From the IMG/VR virus record IMGVR_UViG_637000270_000013: a stretch of DNA of 35,113 nt. One strand, written 5' to 3'. Positions within the stretch are counted from its first letter, which is position 1, and every line of letters begins with the position of its first letter. The translations under genes were made by a program, and so were the position numbers. This document shows, in pieces, positions 3,786 to 27,748 of the stretch. A model generated the notes under the pieces. The model saw only the letters and a program-made list of their open reading frames with translations, did no database searches and had not been told where the DNA came from. The stretch is from a virus.

Positions 3786-4545
3786 TTAGTGGCGTGTCAG
3801 GAAGTGTTTAACTTCGTCTTCGTGCCAGTGGTCAAGGCGATCTTCCACGCCCCGTTGCTGCTGGCGGTGGCAGTTCTCGAAAAGCCGCTGTATATCGGCC
3901 AGCACGGTATGGACGTCTTCACGTTTGCGCAGAATGCGCTTGAGGGTTTGCTTTTCCGCTTCGTGGATGGTTTCACGCAGGGGTTCGGTGACGTAGTAAA
4001 TACAGCGGCACTCTTCGGCCAGCAAGGGGATGTGCTGTGCTTCAAAGGGCATCGGCGATGGGGTGCCGGTCACATCGCGCAGAGAATAGTAAACGGCATT
4101 GGTCCATGCCTGTTCAAAACGGAAGCCGTGGGTAATGCACCATACTAAGCGAGCAAGGTTACGGGTGGTATCGATGCGGGTAAAACGCGCAGGTGCTTCA
4201 GGCTGGTAAACGGGTTGGCCGACTTCGCGATCGAGGATGTCCAGCACCCATTTGCGGAACTCTTTGGCGATTGGCGTACGGGCAAACATGGCGACGAGAT
4301 GTGCACCGCAGGGAGAAAATGCTGGTTTTAATTTTACGTAAACTATTGTTTATTCCATTGGTGGTTGATTCGACCACCAATGACATGCCTGTTGCGAATT
4401 TATCTTCGTTGCTGTTATAAAGCCCGGAAACTGCTTTAGGATCTGCATACTCGAGTGCTTTAGCAAGTTCGGTAGAGGTGAACCAGATCTGCCCGTTGTG
4501 GGGAATGGTTTCAAGAATGGTGTTACGGAACATTAAGGTTGTCAT
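3786..4545 (-). pseudogene. BRO-N domain antirepressor, copy A, frameshift near 4305
   Basis: 'GQIWFTSTELAKALEY...IFSLR' followed in another frame by 'MFARTPIAKEFRKWVLDILDRE'. Confidence 0.85.
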
Positions 4546-4604
4546 AGTAATGATTTCCTTCTTAGTTAAGGAACATCACCACCTAGAGGTCTCAAACTCA
4601 TATT

Positions 4605-4682
4605 GGTGGCGAGCTGAACAGGGTTGAGACTACCGGCTAAGAAGGACCCGGCGAGCCTTGCGGCTCCCCCATCCAGCCCACC
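4605..4682 (-). ncRNA. c4-type antisense RNA (P1 c4 / P4 CI-like), copy A
   Basis: Cloverleaf closed by GGTGG/CCACC with a GAGCC-GCAA-GGCTC GNRA hairpin; carries b' CCTTCTTAG and a' GTCTCAA, complementary to flanking a1/b1 and a2/b2 sites. Confidence 0.85.
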
Positions 4683-4703
4683 ATTATTCTGATATGGCGG
4701 ACT

Positions 4704-4805
4704 GACGCATAAAAAAACACGTTCTCGGCGTGTTATGCGCCTTCTTAGATAACCGGGGTCTCAAACCCGACACCTGAATTTGCAGGTGCGGATTGACTAT
4801 AGCGC
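4704..4805 (-). promoter_or_regulatory. c4 a1-b1 target leader and terminator-like hairpin, copy A
   Basis: Minus strand: CACCTG..CAGGTG hairpin, a1 TTTGAGAC (4758-4765), b1 CTAAGAAGG (4740-4748), then an ACACG..CGTGT hairpin with a T7 run. Confidence 0.75.
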
Positions 4806-4939
4806 ATGGGTTATTCTTCCGTCAGTCAATGGTAAAGGTAAAATATCAAAAAGAAAGTTCAAAGAATATAGCTTTATGCTTATTTATTAATGCGTTTTTA
4901 TTAATGCGTTGATGTGGGCGCTTCTGTTCGGGTATTCCT

Positions 4940-6354: not shown

Positions 6355-6433
6355 GGGTCGGTAGCTCAGATTGGAAGAGCGTACGTGTTATCAAACCGTA
6401 AGGACGCGGGTTCGATGCCTGCTCGACCCTCCA
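6355..6433 (+). tRNA. tRNA-like gene with a 19-nt anticodon arm, identity undetermined, copy A
   Basis: Acceptor GGGTCGG/TCGACCC, D arm GCTC/GAGC, T arm GCGGG-TTCGATG-CCTGC, T73 and encoded CCA; anticodon arm TACGTGTTATCAAACCGTA. Confidence 0.8.
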
Positions 6434-7307: not shown

Positions 7308-7576
7308 CTAAAATATGATTTCAGGCGTTCTATCATCCAGCACGATGACTTCGCCCCCCAGCGCTCTGAGCCGGTCGTGTTCGCGCCTCTGGGAGGGGCG
7401 TGCTTTCTGCCCCGGCGCTTTGCATTCCACAAACAGCACCCGGCCACCAGGTAAGACGACCAGACGGTCAGGTACGCCCGCCTGCTCGGCGATACAAACT
7501 TGTAGGCGATGCCGCCGGTGGCTTTTACCGCGCGGATAAGCTGTTGCTCGATGGCTTTTTCTCTTAGGTAGTACAT
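7308..7576 (-). pseudogene. VRR-NUC domain nuclease, copy A, frameshifted
   Basis: 'MYYLREKAIEQQL...GGIAYKFVSP' then 'AGVPDRLVVLPGGRVLFVECKAPG..RPSQ'. Confidence 0.9.
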
Positions 7577-9074
7577 GCTTATGCCTTCCCGTCATTAATG
7601 GCTCTCGCTAAAGCGCCGGTGCTGGTGTTGGGCGAGGGTTTTGCCATACGGTCAGCGGTCAAAAAGTCATAAACAACGTTGCCGTTGCCGAAGTCCCACG
7701 CGTTACAGTTAGCGTTGGCGAACGGTACGATGGTCATGGATGGTTTTTCAATGTTCATCGAGTTATTCCTTCCGGTAATAAAGCGCTTCAAACCCGCCAG
7801 CGTTAAGCGGCAGGCCATCGGCCCAATGTGGGGTAGTTGCCAGTAGGGTGCTTAGCGCGTCATGCGTGTAGTCATCGGTATCCGGCGCTTCGCAGACCAC
7901 CTCATCGTGTACCGTTAAAACAATCTCGTAGCCGTGCTCTTCAATCACGGGCATGGCTGCTGCCAGCACGTCACGCGTGGCTGCTTGGGTGAGATTTTCC
8001 GCAATTTTTCCGGAATATGTTTTGAGCCGGTCCCATTTGTGCTTGTACGGGTCCATGCCCATGTAGGTCACTTCCCCTCTCCCGGGTAACAGACGACCCG
8101 GCCCGAGGGCAGGGCGATGCGCAGCCACGCACCGTCGCGCCGGATTTTGACGCGCCGACAAGGCAGCGTGCACCCGGGTGTTCAATGGTGTGCCGTACCC
8201 CGTCCTCCAGTGTCCGCCAGAACGAGATGGTCTTTGGATGCGCGTCCCGCCACAGGCGTTTTATCGAATTACAGGCAACAAACACGCGCTCTGTCAGCCC
8301 GTAGGTTTTCTTCCGCTTTACGGACTCGGCGTACCAGTTTCCGGCCTCGCGGATAATTGTCGCCGGTATGGAGGGCAGGGCCACATCGGCCAGCGCATCG
8401 AGGTCAAGGCCGTAGGCGAGGGCAAAGGTCACGAAGGCTGCCACGCCGCCGCCATACCCCAATCCGAGCTCCATCACCTTACCGACTTGCCTTTGCGCTT
8501 TGGTCATTTCGCTTGGGTCGATGTGGAACGCCTTGGCGTAGGCCAGCTTGTACAGGTCATCGCCGATACCAGCGTCATAATCGCGGAATGCCTGCAGCTT
8601 CCATTCCTCGCCCGCCAGCCACGCCAGCATCCGGCCTTCGATATTGCTCAGGTCGGATACTACTAGCTTCTTACCTTCGGGCGTGCGGATGCAGGCGCGT
8701 AGTGCAGAACTGGTGAGCGGCATAACGTCGAACGCCAAATCTGCCACGCCCTTTTTCAGCGCCTTTATCCCCAGGTCAATCTCTGCCTGTGACATGGATG
8801 GCCGAGGGAGGTTGTCGGGCTGAAAAAGCCGCCCCGCCCAGCTCCCGGTACGTGAGGCACCACAAAACTGCTTGGTGCCGCGTAAACGGCCATCGCGGCT
8901 GACGGATTCGACCAATTTCTCGTACTTACTGGTGCTGGTTGTACAGGATTGGAGACGGACGATCAGCCGTTCGCGCAACGCTATCGGCAGATCGGGGTCG
9001 TTGATACGCCGCTTAAGTGTACTTTTCTGCATATCCGGCAGGGTAATGCCGAAGGCGTTAACGATATGGTTGAT
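7326..9074. repeat. ~1.75-kb direct repeat, copy 1 (copy 2 at 25765-27513)
   Basis: Constant offset of 18439; the translated ORFs are identical in both copies. Confidence 0.95.
7579..7758 (-). CDS. Small hypothetical phage protein
   Basis: MNIEKPS... lies between pol and VRR-NUC, AAGGA SD; duplicated at 26018-26197. Confidence 0.45.
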   Translation of the reverse strand: MNIEKPSMTIVPFANANCNAWDFGNGNVVYDFLTADRMAKPSPNTSTGALARAINDGKA

Positions 9075-9813
9075 CATGGCGTCGCGCCGGGGTGGACCCC
9101 ACCTCGCCGTCGGTGAGCTCTTCCGTGCGCTTGTCGAGGTGTTTTTTCTCCTCTGTGATGGCGGCCATCGCAATTTCGGCCAGCGCCATATCCATGCACA
9201 TGCCATGGCGATTGATGTGCTGGTCAAGACGCCATAGCGCTATTTCAAACGGGGTGAGGTTCCAGCGTGGCATCCGTTGCCAGATTACCCGCATCGCCTC
9301 TATATCTGCCGCGGCGTACTCGACAAAACGTTGCCATTCTTCCGGGTGCGTATCGCGGTTCGGGCGACGGATTTTGTGAGTCCGTGGTTGTGGTTTACAG
9401 AAGATCTTAACAAGCTGCCTGCCGGATTTGTCCTTGGCCTGGTTGGTTGGGACGTTCAGTACCTCACACAGCGCACCCAGCGAACCGGGCAGGCTGTGCG
9501 CATAGGCTTGGGCCATTGTGTCGTGTATACGCTCGAGCGGAATATCGATACCTAAAGTATGTTGCAGCACCACGGAGTCGAACATGCCGCCGTTGTGCCA
9601 GACAGTTATGACCTGCGGGTCATCAAGCACAGCGCTTAACGCCTCGAGCATCGGGTCGCAGGTAGTGAGGTCCCACACATTGACCGGGCCATCGCCGATC
9701 GCCCAGGCAAACAGCAGTACTTCGGCGTTTTCAGCATAGCGGTGCGTACCGCAGTTAAGCGGCGTTTCGCAGTACGTCTCAAGGTCCGCGAAAAGCGGAG
9801 GTGGGGAAGTCAT
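7763..9813 (-). pseudogene. Family A phage DNA polymerase (APSE-like), three fragments
   Basis: Exonuclease 'FADLET', 'VWHNGGMFD', 'YAAADI'; motif A '[11 protein letters not shown]'; motif B '[14 protein letters not shown]'; motif C 'LTVHDE'. Confidence 0.95.
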
Positions 9814-12384: not shown

Positions 12385-13040
12385 TTAATCTAAGCAGTGC
12401 CACCGGGCGTCAATAACTTTACCGACGCATCTGCACTCGTTTTTGCCTAAATTTATAAGTGGATACTGTGGGTTTAACGGTTTTAGAAAGCGCATCCCTG
12501 CATCTTCTAAGTATTTTTTAAAGGTGGCGAAACCACTTTCTTCAAAATACATCACGCATAGTTCACTTGAACTTACGGTTTTATCGGGGTCAACCAGAAT
12601 CAGAATTCCTTCCGGGAAGCTAGGGCGCGATCCTATGGGGGATGTCATGGAATCACCGTGGACTTCTAACCAGAATGCCCTCTCGCTGGCGCTCTTTACT
12701 GTTGGGACCTAGCGTATAGCGTTTTCCACTGTAAAAGTGCCATCGGTTTCAGTAAAGTCCCCGGCCTGAACCCAACTAAGAAGAGGGTATTCGGGGAGCT
12801 GAGCTTCGGTCGTGACGATGGACTTTGCTCCCCAAAAAGTAATTCACCAGGAGATACTTTCAATATCTTAGATAGTATAAGGGCATCATCAGCGCCGATA
12901 CCTCTGGCTCCTTTTTCGTAGTTTGCTATGCGAGATTGTGAGGCCCATCCGCAAAGTTTTGCTAGCTGAGCTTGACTCAACCCCGCCTGTTCTCTGATAC
13001 GTTTTAAACGATCACCAATTATTTCAAATTGTGTTTTCAT
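12385..13040 (-). pseudogene. cI: CI-like repressor (HTH plus S24 peptidase), frameshifted
   Basis: HTH 'LSQAQLAKLCGWASQSRIANYEKG'; 'WVQAG', 'VHGDSM' and 'ATFKK' in a second frame. Confidence 0.9.
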
Positions 13041-13220: not shown

Positions 13221-13559
13221 ATGTTTGATGTTGGAAAATACAAGGACATGTTTGATGAACCATATTGCTGTGTACCGAAAAAATTAGGCATTACGCAAGC
13301 CTCGCTGGCAGAAAAACTAGGGTGGAACCAATCTCGAATTGCTAACTACGAGAGCGGAAAACGGTTGCCTAACTTGAACGTTTGTCACGAGATTGTTCGC
13401 CTTTTTAACGAGGAAGGGCTTTCGTGTAGTGTTGATAGTCTTTTTCCGCCCAAACCAGAGATGGTGTTTCCCCAAACCGATCTGCCTAACAGCGTTGACG
13501 AAGAAGAGGATGATGACGACGAAGGGGATATTGATTTAACGAAATACTACAACGTCTGA
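13221..13559 (+). CDS. Cro-like HTH regulator with acidic tail (5' end possibly degraded)
   Basis: 'LGITQASLAEKLGWNQSRIANYESGKRLP'; divergent from cI and shares the QSRIANYE recognition helix. Confidence 0.75.
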   Translation: MFDVGKYKDMFDEPYCCVPKKLGITQASLAEKLGWNQSRIANYESGKRLPNLNVCHEIVRLFNEEGLSCSVDSLFPPKPEMVFPQTDLPNSVDEEEDDDDEGDIDLTKYYNV

Positions 13560-19764: not shown

Positions 19765-20987
19765 GAGTTATTATCAAATCTGGTGTATGGCAATCAGGCT
19801 ACGTTCTGCTCTGATGCTTCGTGAATCTGTTCTCCATCCTGAAATTGGACGTTGTTTACCACCAGGGTCAGCAGGTCAAATCCTCTTAGCCGGTTCCAGC
19901 TTTTCTGAGCAGACTGGAGCAGCTTAAATACCATTGACAGGGTGGTTTCTCTCGAACCACACTTTTTTACGCGTCTGCTTCGTAGCCTCACAGTCGCAAA
20001 AGCCGATTCAATCGGCTTTGTCGTTCTTATTGATGCCCAGTGCTCTGACGGGAAGTCGTAGAATGCCAGCAGTTCTTCTCGATCTTTCTCCAGCTTCTTC
20101 ATCGCTGCAGGATACTTCGCTGAAAACCTTGCCAACAAAACATCAAAAGCGTCATTAGCGGCATCGCGGCTTTCTGCTAGCCAGATCTCCCGAAGCTCAG
20201 CCTTAACTTTCGGTTGCACATTAGCCGTTTTGTGCACCCAACAGCGTTGGTGCTGCGTGTCCGGGAATATCTTTGCCATTGCATTCCAAAAACCAAGGGC
20301 ACCGTCTCCCGTAGCTAGCTTGGGAGATACGGTTAGGCCACCTGCTTGCAGGCCATTGAGAAGTTCGGCCCAGTTTGCTTCTGATTCTTGATAACCCTCT
20401 TCGACCGCAACCAGCTCCTGACGTCCATGCTCAGTGACGCCGATACTGACCAGTAGGCAAAGGCGATCATCTTGCCTGACATGGCTGTATATGCCATCAG
20501 CCCAGAAATAAACGTAGCGCGTATCGCTTAAATCACGCAGGCACCATTGCCTGTGCACTTCAAGCCATTGCTGTTTCAGTCTGCTGATGGTACTCGCGGA
20601 GAGGCCATGGGCTTTTTCACCGAGTAGCGCCCCCAGGGCTTCATGAAAATCACCGGTGGATATGCCTCGCAGGTACAGCCATGGCAGCAACGCGCTGTTG
20701 AACGCTGTGGCAAATAACCGTTACGGACGACGGCATGACGCCCATCGTCAAGACGGCGTTCAGCATGGCTTCGAGCTCAGCCTCAACGACGGCGGCCATC
20801 AGTTGTCTGGCACCATGACGGATGAGTTCATGTAAGGGCTCACCGGTAATATCTGGTTCTGCGGAGACCTGTAGGGTAGACTTTTTCATGGCGTATCATC
20901 TCTCTGTCGTTGAAATCATCCACGAAATCAATCAGCAGCATACGCCACCCTCTCCGAAACCTCATACACCAGAAATGAGCATAACTC
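19765..20987 (-). mobile_element. IS256-family element
   Basis: Imperfect terminal IRs GAGTTATTATCAAATCTGGTGTATG and GAGTTATGCTCATTTCTGGTGTATG; no flanking direct repeat. Confidence 0.92.
19794..20889 (-). pseudogene. IS256 transposase with frameshift/deletion
   Basis: 'YLRGISTGDF', 'YFWADG', 'GDGALGFW', 'QRCWVHK', 'IRTTKPIESAF'. Confidence 0.9.
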
Positions 20988-21209
20988 GCGAGATTTTGCA
21001 CTCGCCGATTTTGGTGAGATCAAATTATCGACAATCACGTAGTCGACGTTTTCAACAAATCCGTACTGCTTGATGCGTTCTTTAATCCAGTTGGTGAAAT
21101 CCTTGCCGATCTTCAGGAACGCGTGAAGGTCACGGGCGTTCGCCGTCTGGACGGCTTCTCCATTGATGCTATTTGTTTCGATTGCAATCAGTTGATTTTC
21201 TTTAGACAT
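20988..21209 (-). pseudogene. AntA/AntB antirepressor truncated by IS256
   Basis: 'QTANARDLHAFLKIGKDFTNWIKERIKQYGFVENVDY'. Confidence 0.88.
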
Positions 21210-21276
21210 AGTAAGCTCCTCACAAGTCAATGTGATTAATGAAGTCCCGGGGCGATCCCAGGGCAGAATTACTGGG

Positions 21277-21989
21277 TTAGTGGCGTGTCAGGAAGTGTTT
21301 AACTTCGTCTTCGTGCCAGTGGTCAAGGCGATTTTCCACGCCCCGTTGCTGCTGGCGGTGGCAGCTCTCGAAAAGCCGCTGTATATCAGCTAGCACGGTA
21401 TGGACGTCTTCACGCAGGGTTTCGGTGACTTAGTAAATGCGGCGGCACTCTTCGGCCAGCAGGGGGATATGCTGCGCTTCAAAAGGCATCGGCGATGGGG
21501 TGCCAGTGACATCGCGCAGGGAATAGTAAACGGCATTGGTCCATGCCTGTTCAAAACGGAAGCCGCGGGTAATGCACCAGACTAAACGCGCAAGGTTACG
21601 GGTATCGTTGCGCGTAAAACGCTCAGGGGCTTCGGGTTGGTAGACCGGGTGACTGACTTCGCGGTCGAGAGTGTCCAGCACCCATTTGCGGAACTCTTTG
21701 GCAATCGGCGTGTTGGCGAACATTGCAATCAGGTGAGGTGAGCGCCGCGTAGGGAGAAAACGCGAACTGCTTTTTCACGTAAGCTATTGTTTATCCGATT
21801 GACGGTCAAATTGACCGCCGTTGTCATGCATGAAGTAAATTCGTCTTTGTTCCAATTGTAAATATTTTTGATAGAATCAAGTTGACGATAGTCCAATGCC
21901 TTGGCAAGCACAACAGATGTGAACCAGATTTGCCCGTCGTGGGCGACAGTTTCAAGAATAGTATTACGGAAAGTTAAGGTAGTGGTCAT
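21277..21989 (-). pseudogene. BRO-N antirepressor, copy B (stops and an internal deletion)
   Basis: Homologous to 3786-4545; 'GQIWFTSVVLAKALDY', 'FSLRGAHL', 'AKEFRKWVLD'. Confidence 0.85.
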
Positions 21990-22046
21990 AATGACCTCCT
22001 GCGGTTACTTTGTGTAATCACCACCTAGAGGTCTGAAACTCATATT

Positions 22047-22121
22047 GGTGGTGAACTGAACAGGTTTCAGACTACCGAGTAACCAACTAGCCAGCCTTTC
22101 GGCTGCCCCATTCAGTCCACC
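22047..22121 (-). ncRNA. c4-type antisense RNA, copy B
   Basis: Same fold as copy A with a CAGCC-GAAA-GGCTG hairpin; b' GGTTACT and a' GTCTGAAA match this copy's own flanking targets. Confidence 0.85.
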
Positions 22122-22149
22122 ATTATTAGGACGTACGGATGTTTTTGGA

Positions 22150-22250
22150 CAATAAAAAAACACGCTCGCGGCGTGTCACATTGTCGCGGTCACTTCGGCG
22201 GGGTCTGAAACCTGACACCTGAATTTGCAGGTGCAGATTGACTATAGCGC
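22150..22250 (-). promoter_or_regulatory. c4 a1-b1 target leader and terminator-like hairpin, copy B
   Basis: a1 TTTCAGAC (22203-22210), b1 AGTGACC (22188-22194), ACACG..CGTGT hairpin with a T7 run. Confidence 0.7.
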
Positions 22251-22326
22251 ATGGATTATCTCGTCGTTAATAGTCAAAGCGAAATGTCAAGAAGAAAGTT
22301 CAAAGAATATAGCTTTCCCTGGCCAG

Positions 22327-23688: not shown

Positions 23689-23767
23689 GGGTCGGTAGCT
23701 CAGATTGGAAGAGCGTACGTGTTATTAAACCGTAAGGACGCGGGTTCGATGCCTGCTCGACCCTCCA
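23689..23767 (+). tRNA. tRNA-like gene with expanded anticodon arm, copy B
   Basis: Identical to 6355-6433 except for one loop base (TTATTAAA versus TTATCAAA). Confidence 0.8.
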
Positions 23768-25755: not shown

Positions 25756-26015
25756 ACCCACGACCGTTCTATCATCCAGCACGATGACTTCGCCCCCCAG
25801 CGCTCTGAGCCGGTCGTGTTCGCGCCTCTGGGAGGGGCGTGCTTTCTGCCCCGGCGCTTTGCATTCCACAAACAGCACCCGGCCACCAGGTAAGACGACC
25901 AGACGGTCAGGTACGCCCGCCTGCTCGGCGATACAAACTTGTAGGCGATGCCGCCGGTGGCTTTTACCGCGCGGATAAGCTGTTGCTCGATGGCTTTTTC
26001 TCTTAGGTAGTACAT
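25752..26015 (-). pseudogene. VRR-NUC nuclease, copy B, same frameshift as copy A
   Basis: Identical to 7326-7576. Confidence 0.88.
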
Positions 26016-27513
26016 GCTTATGCCTTCCCGTCATTAATGGCTCTCGCTAAAGCGCCGGTGCTGGTGTTGGGCGAGGGTTTTGCCATACGGTCAGCGGTCA
26101 AAAAGTCATAAACAACGTTGCCGTTGCCGAAGTCCCACGCGTTACAGTTAGCGTTGGCGAACGGTACGATGGTCATGGATGGTTTTTCAATGTTCATCGA
26201 GTTATTCCTTCCGGTAATAAAGCGCTTCAAACCCGCCAGCGTTAAGCGGCAGGCCATCGGCCCAATGTGGGGTAGTTGCCAGTAGGGTGCTTAGCGCGTC
26301 ATGCGTGTAGTCATCGGTATCCGGCGCTTCGCAGACCACCTCATCGTGTACCGTTAAAACAATCTCGTAGCCGTGCTCTTCAATCACGGGCATGGCTGCT
26401 GCCAGCACGTCACGCGTGGCTGCTTGGGTGAGATTTTCCGCAATTTTTCCGGAATATGTTTTGAGCCGGTCCCATTTGTGCTTGTACGGGTCCATGCCCA
26501 TGTAGGTCACTTCCCCTCTCCCGGGTAACAGACGACCCGGCCCGAGGGCAGGGCGATGCGCAGCCACGCACCGTCGCGCCGGATTTTGACGCGCCGACAA
26601 GGCAGCGTGCACCCGGGTGTTCAATGGTGTGCCGTACCCCGTCCTCCAGTGTCCGCCAGAACGAGATGGTCTTTGGATGCGCGTCCCGCCACAGGCGTTT
26701 TATCGAATTACAGGCAACAAACACGCGCTCTGTCAGCCCGTAGGTTTTCTTCCGCTTTACGGACTCGGCGTACCAGTTTCCGGCCTCGCGGATAATTGTC
26801 GCCGGTATGGAGGGCAGGGCCACATCGGCCAGCGCATCGAGGTCAAGGCCGTAGGCGAGGGCAAAGGTCACGAAGGCTGCCACGCCGCCGCCATACCCCA
26901 ATCCGAGCTCCATCACCTTACCGACTTGCCTTTGCGCTTTGGTCATTTCGCTTGGGTCGATGTGGAACGCCTTGGCGTAGGCCAGCTTGTACAGGTCATC
27001 GCCGATACCAGCGTCATAATCGCGGAATGCCTGCAGCTTCCATTCCTCGCCCGCCAGCCACGCCAGCATCCGGCCTTCGATATTGCTCAGGTCGGATACT
27101 ACTAGCTTCTTACCTTCGGGCGTGCGGATGCAGGCGCGTAGTGCAGAACTGGTGAGCGGCATAACGTCGAACGCCAAATCTGCCACGCCCTTTTTCAGCG
27201 CCTTTATCCCCAGGTCAATCTCTGCCTGTGACATGGATGGCCGAGGGAGGTTGTCGGGCTGAAAAAGCCGCCCCGCCCAGCTCCCGGTACGTGAGGCACC
27301 ACAAAACTGCTTGGTGCCGCGTAAACGGCCATCGCGGCTGACGGATTCGACCAATTTCTCGTACTTACTGGTGCTGGTTGTACAGGATTGGAGACGGACG
27401 ATCAGCCGTTCGCGCAACGCTATCGGCAGATCGGGGTCGTTGATACGCCGCTTAAGTGTACTTTTCTGCATATCCGGCAGGGTAATGCCGAAGGCGTTAA
27501 CGATATGGTTGAT
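25765..27513. repeat. ~1.75-kb direct repeat, copy 2
   Basis: Matches 7326-9074. Confidence 0.95.
26202..27513 (-). pseudogene. Family A DNA polymerase, C-terminal part, copy B
   Basis: Motifs A, B and C present; exonuclease domain deleted. Confidence 0.92.
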
Positions 27514-27748
27514 GATTATCCTTGAGAGTTAAATCCTTATATAACAAATCATTAGCCTCTACATTGAAAAATTTTGCAATGTTTTGGACCACTGCCAACC
27601 GAGGACTTTTGACTTCACCATTCAGCATCCGATGCAATGTAGGCTGAGGCATCCCTATTCGCCGTGATAATTCAGCAACACTTTTTACTTGCTTATTAGA
27701 CATTAAGCTATTGATATTTCTTTTTAATTTTTCTGTCCCTAAGTTCAT
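27514..27748 (-). pseudogene. CI-like repressor HTH of prophage B, truncated by deletion
   Basis: 'SVAELSRRIGMPQPTLHRMLNGEVKSPR...IAKFFNV'; runs directly into polymerase sequence. Confidence 0.8.

Follow-up and report, generated by a model that had tools for sequence, protein, structure and literature searches.

The c4 principle has been known since the studies of phages P1 and P7 in 1990, the original work reportedly being that of Citron and Schuster. In P1, the c4 RNA is cut out of its precursor by RNase P. The c4 RNAs of P1 and P7 block translation of icd-ant via the a2/b2 sites, and differences in the codes underlie the heteroimmunity of these phages (PMC12197685). The annotated P1 record gives the promoters P1c4/P2c4, a1, b1, c4, a2, b2 and the icd start.

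Two other systems are built in a comparable manner. In Gifsy-1, transcription from the isrK promoter has two outcomes: termination yields IsrK, and read-through yields a processed RNA of ~80 nt (STnc1160) and the antirepressor gene. For IsrK of Gifsy-1 binding to Hfq has been shown, and its supply in trans increases antirepressor translation about 140-fold (Hershko-Shalev et al. 2016, PMC4825925). Such activation in trans is what would be expected of an a1-b1 decoy of C4, and in c4 terms IsrK may, by analogy, be regarded as an a1-b1 leader acting as a C4 decoy. The order IsrK/orf45 (STnc1160)/anrP, i.e., a terminated leader RNA, a processed ~80-nt RNA and an antirepressor gene, is also the order of the corresponding candidate elements in the DNA described here. 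The C4 region of Gifsy-1 has also been read as a 45-codon ORF serving translational coupling (PMC4825925), a role that is not evident here. The CI RNA of P4, which has been cited as a structural homologue (PMC4825925), is likewise a processed immunity RNA situated between upstream and downstream complementary sites (seqA and seqC), but it differs in acting by premature transcription termination on replication genes.

The closest relatives are the APSE phages, in which the BRO-N gene is a putative antirepressor gene. All APSE phages carry both RNAs, and their a'/b' regions are matched by sequence lying upstream of the BRO-N gene P43 (Rouil et al. 2020, PMC7313666); the C4 sRNA, the isrK sRNA, the a'/b' regions and the BRO-N gene are annotated in their records (GenBank LR794146-LR794152). 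The module of c4, isrK and BRO-N is therefore already published and annotated for APSE phages, and the pair of loci described below is a clear instance of this established system, not of a new one. In APSE, a'/b' have a further match at the 3' end of the DNA polymerase gene (PMC7313666). The corresponding match was sought in the window (the whole stretch of 35,113 nt that was analysed); at that end of the gene only the 7-mer AGTRACC recurs, which has eight occurrences in the window, and the recurrence was judged to be due to chance.

The window consists of two collinear APSE-like arrays lying in tandem in the same orientation, each with one c4-type locus, designated copy A and copy B. The host genome is presumably that of Sodalis glossinidius (morsitans). 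In the phage collection APSE is the closest DNA: copy A is 85% identical to it over 344 nt and copy B about 74% identical. Its gene neighbourhood (integrase, P-loop NTPase, BRO-N, VRR-NUC and DNA polymerase) is like that of the window. The window differs from the APSE phages of Hamiltonella defensa, an aphid symbiont, in having other a/b codes, in consisting of degraded tandem chromosomal remnants, and in its different host genus.

The elements of the two loci are as follows.

Copy A, 4796-4825, minus strand: promoter-like site CTGACG-18 nt-TATAGT (promoter scan).
Copy A, 4711-4802, minus strand: IsrK-like leader, beginning with a hairpin (Rfam isrK and c4-a1b1; terminator scan).
Copy A, 4758-4765, minus strand: a1, TTTGAGAC, inside the hairpin loop (motif search).
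Copy A, 4740-4748, minus strand: b1, CTAAGAAGG (motif search).
Copy A, 4711-4734, minus strand: intrinsic terminator (terminator scan).
Copy A, 4602-4688, minus strand: C4 antisense RNA (Rfam C4; MFE fold).
Copy A, 4637-4645, minus strand: b' loop (motif search).
Copy A, 4624-4630, minus strand: a' junction, GTCTCAA (motif search).
Copy A, 4543-4596, minus strand: target region with a2, b2 and ATG (motif search; duplex energies).
Copy A, 4589-4596, minus strand: a2 (motif search).
Copy A, 4557-4565, minus strand: b2, overlapping the SD (motif search).
Copy A, 4543-4545, minus strand: start codon ATG (sequence reading).
Copy A, 3789-4545, minus strand: BRO-N antirepressor-like gene, a pseudogene (tblastn; DNA alignment; Pfam Bro-N, E 4.6e-5).
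Copy B, 22241-22270, minus strand: promoter-like site TTAACG-18 nt-TATAGT (promoter scan).
Copy B, 22154-22246, minus strand: IsrK-like leader (Rfam isrK; terminator scan).
Copy B, 22203-22210, minus strand: a1, TTTCAGAC (motif search).
Copy B, 22188-22194, minus strand: b1, AGTGACC (motif search).
Copy B, 22154-22177, minus strand: terminator (terminator scan).
Copy B, 22044-22127, minus strand: C4 antisense RNA with eroded P3 (Rfam C4; MFE fold).
Copy B, 22078-22084, minus strand: b', GGTTACT (motif search).
Copy B, 22065-22072, minus strand: a', GTCTGAAA (motif search).
Copy B, 21987-22038, minus strand: target region with a2, b2, SD and ATG (motif search; duplex energies).
Copy B, 22031-22038, minus strand: a2 (motif search).
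Copy B, 22003-22009, minus strand: b2, AGTAACC, 3 nt upstream of the SD (motif search).
Copy B, 21995-22000, minus strand: SD.
Copy B, 21987-21989, minus strand: start codon ATG (sequence reading).
Copy B, 21280-21989, minus strand: BRO-N gene, a pseudogene (tblastn; DNA alignment).

This layout corresponds to that of the P1/P7 immI region (RF01695, RF03163), with a promoter, a1, b1, a hairpin followed by a U-run, C4, a2, and b2 on the RBS. The original prediction had likened the loci to P1/P7 c4, and the order and spacings of the annotated P1 immI sites nearly match those of copy A: a1 and b1 are separated by 9 nt (7 nt in P1), a2 and b2 by 23 nt (22 nt), and b2 and the ATG by 11 nt (10 nt). 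As in P1/P7, specificity resides in short a/b codes, which differ between heteroimmune phages (PMC12197685). The differences from P1 lie elsewhere. The first downstream gene is BRO-N in the window, in contrast to icd followed by ant in P1; no C1 operator is evident in the window; and the host element in the window is an APSE-like, podovirus-type prophage with pseudogene outputs, whereas P1 is a plasmid prophage.

In an Rfam scan of the whole window, the C4 antisense RNA model (RF01695) matches copy A at 4602-4688(-) with 76.9 bits (E 1.5e-13) and copy B at 22044-22127(-) with 49.9 bits, and isrK (RF01394) matches the leaders at 4712-4789(-) in copy A (61.9 bits) and at 22155-22234(-) in copy B (53.7 bits), the gathering scores being 45 bits for C4 and 50 bits for isrK. 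The c4-a1b1 model (RF03163) matches copy A at 4750-4802(-) with 51.9 bits. With the same C4 model, P1 c4 scores 68.8 bits and APSE-7 71.3 bits, both below copy A. The isrK leaders of both copies end in a terminator hairpin and a T-run (terminator scan), and the a and b motifs that had been read from the sequence for the two copies were all recovered on the minus strand by motif search. The covariance models thus agree with the c4-type identity that had been proposed from an a1-b1 leader, a terminator and an a2-b2 region at the RBS. Family membership and layout are established, and both loci are genuine P1-type c4 antisense-RNA switches, each with its own matched pairing code.

In both copies a single promoter-like site, located where expected, matches at 9 of 12 positions and has a spacer of 18 nt. 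The -10 block of copy A and its flanks are the same in copy B and are kept in most of the 20 C4 loci of the genome (see below). The MFE fold of the copy A RNA is exactly the C4 consensus (-45.1 kcal/mol, z -4.9), in which the closing stem has 17 bp, the first hairpin has a GCAA loop, the second presents b' in a loop of 11 nt, and the a' junction stays unpaired over 8 nt. The complementarity of this RNA to the targets extends over 7-8 nt for a and 9-10 nt for b, with cognate duplex energies of -8.7 and -14.2 kcal/mol, respectively. The 9-mer CTAAGAAGG occurs six times on both strands of the 4.29-Mb genome, and three of these occurrences fall within 210 nt at copy A. The recurrence of the copy A b code at its own locus is far beyond chance.

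The layout suggests the following mechanism. One promoter would drive a leader with a1 in a hairpin loop and b1 single-stranded, followed by the intrinsic terminator; termination would yield IsrK-like short RNAs, and read-through would yield transcripts carrying C4. Processing by RNase P to a ~77-nt RNA would be consistent with the CCA that follows the C4 closing stem in both copies, this being the one feature that points to it. The a' junction and b' loop of C4 would then pair with a2 and b2 at the BRO-N RBS and block translation, and the a1-b1 leader RNA would titrate C4 and turn the gene on, as for IsrK of Gifsy-1. We infer transcription, processing and repression at both loci in this form.

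In both copies (4571-4610 and 22011-22052), GCCACC on the 3' side of the C4 closing stem pairs with GGTGGTG further downstream, and the resulting hairpin carries a2 in its loop. Therefore, C4 folding and a2 presentation are alternative structures in the unprocessed transcript.

Copy B shows signs of erosion. In its leader a1 pairs exactly, and the pairing of b1 includes one G-U. Complementarity to the targets is 8 nt for a and 7 nt for b, and the cognate duplex energies are -8.7 to -9.6 kcal/mol for a and -7.6 kcal/mol for b. The second hairpin (P3) of its C4 RNA reads GCUAG/UCGGU, the non-canonical pairs of which are flagged by the Rfam model, and in the MFE fold the closing stem and the GAAA hairpin are formed and P3 is absent. 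The low bit score of the copy B C4 RNA is due to this erosion of P3, which suggests decay. Considering the weak cognate pairing, the 7-nt b site and the eroded P3, copy B may have ceased working.

The two copies are 84% identical over 440 aligned columns, and the changes are concentrated in the a/b sites and in paired stem positions. The tetraloop hairpin is GAGCC-GCAA-GGCTC in copy A and CAGCC-GAAA-GGCTG in copy B, both strands being changed, just as had been claimed for this GNRA stem. To compare the codes, duplex energies between the a' junction plus b' loop and the region from a2 to the start codon were computed for 20 × 20 loci, i.e., for all C4 loci of the genome. The summed energies are -22.9 kcal/mol for copy A on its own target (A→A) and -16.3 kcal/mol for B→B, versus -12.3 kcal/mol for A→B and -9.7 kcal/mol for B→A. 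Over the matrix, the cognate mean is -18.4 kcal/mol and the non-cognate mean -10.6 ± 2.6 kcal/mol. For copies A and B, both the cognate target and the cognate leader rank first of 20. When opening energies are added in a rough model, the net values become -14.3 (A→A), +4.9 (A→B), -3.0 (B→A) and +0.2 kcal/mol (B→B).

With different two-site codes in the two modules, the predicted action of each C4 RNA is therefore confined to its own target. The window pair is predicted to be free of cross-reaction, and in the rough model copy B's interaction with its own target is marginal; we likewise infer orthogonality in vivo. The proposal of an orthogonal pair is thus upheld by the pairing energies as a prediction, and it is weakened on the side of copy B, where the cognate net energy is +0.2 kcal/mol when the structure of the target is taken into account. 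Duplex and opening energies were used in place of RNAcofold on full-length RNAs, because loop-loop (kissing) pairs are pseudoknots outside the fold space of that program. The longest complementary run, with G-U allowed, was tried as a measure of orthogonality over the 20 × 20 loci and dropped for lack of discrimination; because many off-diagonal runs reach 7-9 nt, it was replaced by duplex energies.

In the 4.29-Mb genome as a whole, 20 C4 matches exceed the gathering score, located on G000:C1, C2 and C3, and the window copies are two of these (c03 and c19). This is the highest count among the 41 related genomes searched, the other 40 having 0-17. The RNA's own downstream target is the best of the 20 partners for 18 of the 20 C4 RNAs, the expectation by chance being 1/20 per locus; the two exceptions are plasmid copies without a2-b2. 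The RNA's own leader ranks first for 17 of the 20. Therefore, the co-variation is real, and the codes, which had been described as co-varied and locus-specific, do fit their own targets best by energy in the matrix.

No two of the 20 loci have both codes in common, and single codes are shared: the a code of copy A is also found in c01 and c02, and the b code of copy B in c11. These a codes recur in other species, where they are combined with different b codes again, and each of those b codes has its matching b1 and b2. It appears, therefore, that specificity is a combinatorial two-site code across the family. A second pair in the genome, 97 kb away, corresponds to loci c12 and c05, the codes of which were confirmed. 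The nearest matches in other genomes are in Ca. Sodalis and Symbiopectobacterium. Four loci of the genome under study (c04, c07, c08 and c18) look closer to the P4 CI type than the window copies do. On these grounds the 20 modules may tentatively be viewed as a naturally evolved library of mutually orthogonal antisense locks with a combinatorial (a × b) two-site code, a reading to which we give somewhat less than an even chance.

Some of the loci depart from the common arrangement. Locus c17 (G000:C1:2663715-2664130) is chimeric: its leader is of the c06 type, with an identical b1 and an a1 one base off, and its C4 and a2-b2 have another code. This suggests recombination between leader and C4, and the leader would serve as a decoy for the C4 RNA of a different locus. 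Three C4 copies are on plasmids (G000:C2:13096-13182, G000:C2:50694-50779 and G000:C3:16104-16189). Two of the three (c13 and c14) have a1-b1 and no recognisable a2-b2 downstream, and any target of theirs would be elsewhere.

The genes behind the two switches are broken. By tblastn both are homologues of the APSE P43/BRO-N gene (E 3e-71 and 5e-58), and with the APSE-7 BRO-N protein (256 aa) as tblastn query the N-terminal third and the rest of the protein match in different frames in both copies. In copy A, amino acids 1 to ~75 are in frame -2 and amino acids 73-256 in frame -3, a 2-nt deletion near 4304-4306 shifting the frame. In the copy B gene, the 5-nt sequence CACCT is duplicated in tandem (21731-21740), a stop interrupts the frame near 21430, and 18 codons are deleted. 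The Pfam Bro-N score of the truncated ORFs is below its cutoff.

The two BRO-N paralogues share only ~77% DNA identity, and each has a frameshift of independent origin at the conserved FSLRGAHL motif, the two sites (window 4300-4310 and 21731-21740) being no more than ~10 nt apart in relative position. The adjacency of the two frameshifts may be a coincidence or may reflect a mutational hot spot.

The surrounding arrays are also degraded. Array A runs from an integrase gene (1-846) through P-loop NTPase, BRO-N, C4, KilA-N, VRR-NUC, DNA polymerase, DUF2800, a divergent cI/cro-like pair (12696-13040 and 13221-13559), primase, holin and endolysin genes, and at its end the small-terminase gene (terS) is interrupted by a Mutator-family transposase (19794-20690). 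Array B begins with an AntA fragment (20928-21230), continues with BRO-N, C4, a pRha-like ORF, VRR-NUC, DNA polymerase and primase, lacks the stretch that carries the repressor pair in array A, and has its end close to an IS and a tRNA-Lys gene. The P-loop NTPase, VRR-NUC, DNA polymerase and primase genes near the modules are split as well, which fits the massive pseudogenisation for which the host genome is known. The two co-resident prophages that had been proposed are thus real as two tandem APSE-like arrays, and both are only remnants.

A block of 1752 bp, which spans VRR-NUC and a portion of the DNA polymerase gene (7326-9077 and 25765-27516), is 99.9% identical between the remnants, versus 76-94% in the other parts that they share, and recent gene conversion is therefore suggested. 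Each remnant also has a tRNA-like gene at the same relative place (6355-6433 and 23689-23767; Rfam tRNA, ~40 bits), with the unusual anticodons ATC (Asp) and ATT (Asn) (ARAGORN).

The original picture of two working antirepressor controls is not sustained: both BRO-N genes are frameshifted, the copy B C4 RNA is without P3, and remnant B is without the repressor region. With pseudogenes as outputs and erosion under way in copy B, the functional picture was overstated. The best full explanation, which we regard as highly probable, is that the loci are two immI-type (c4/IsrK) modules in tandem APSE-like remnants and are now relics. Against this explanation may be set the suggestion that the RNA modules are still active and are kept for a role in trans, independent of the broken BRO-N genes, as in cross-immunity among the 20 c4 loci or against APSE-like phages. 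The promoter, leader, C4 and targets of copy A are indeed intact despite the broken gene behind them, the a code of copy A and the b code of copy B recur singly at other loci as described above, the c06-type leader of c17 is a possible decoy in trans, and Hfq is retained in the published genome of S. glossinidius, the species from which the window presumably derives. However, both codes of copy A or of copy B together are found at no other locus, the summed cross energies are at the background level, copy B is visibly eroding, and some 200 nt may persist intact by chance for a long time in a slowly decaying prophage. A role in trans is, in our view, improbable.

Less probable still, and in fact very hard to credit, is cross-talk between the two switches through codes that are not orthogonal. 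It might be expected from a codes that are only one central base apart and from a copy A b' loop that resembles an anti-SD sequence (CCUUCU), and this loop does pair with the SD region of copy B at -8.6 kcal/mol, better than the -7.6 kcal/mol of copy B's own b'-b2 pairing when accessibility is left uncounted. With target accessibility included, however, the net A→B energy is +4.9 kcal/mol; the copy A a' junction pairs with the copy B a2 at only -3.7 kcal/mol, in contrast to -8.7 kcal/mol for the cognate site; and the A→B sum of -12.3 kcal/mol falls inside the non-cognate background. In P1/P7, moreover, small code differences suffice for heteroimmunity (PMC12197685). The reading of the loci as two relic modules, each with a code of its own, is accordingly preferred. 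Code matching and gene breakage are both observed directly.

Taken alone, the window pair matters little, since the RNA immunity system is well described and merely gains two further alleles. The pair does illustrate that, in a symbiont genome undergoing decay, the RNA parts can persist longer than the genes under their control. The number of modules per genome may be under-described, and the set of 20 modules with distinct two-site codes is a possible natural test bed for coexisting orthogonal c4 specificities. If the reading of this set as an orthogonal library is true, it would imply that immunity specificity has been under diversifying selection among many prophages residing together, and the set could be a source of orthogonal riboregulator parts.
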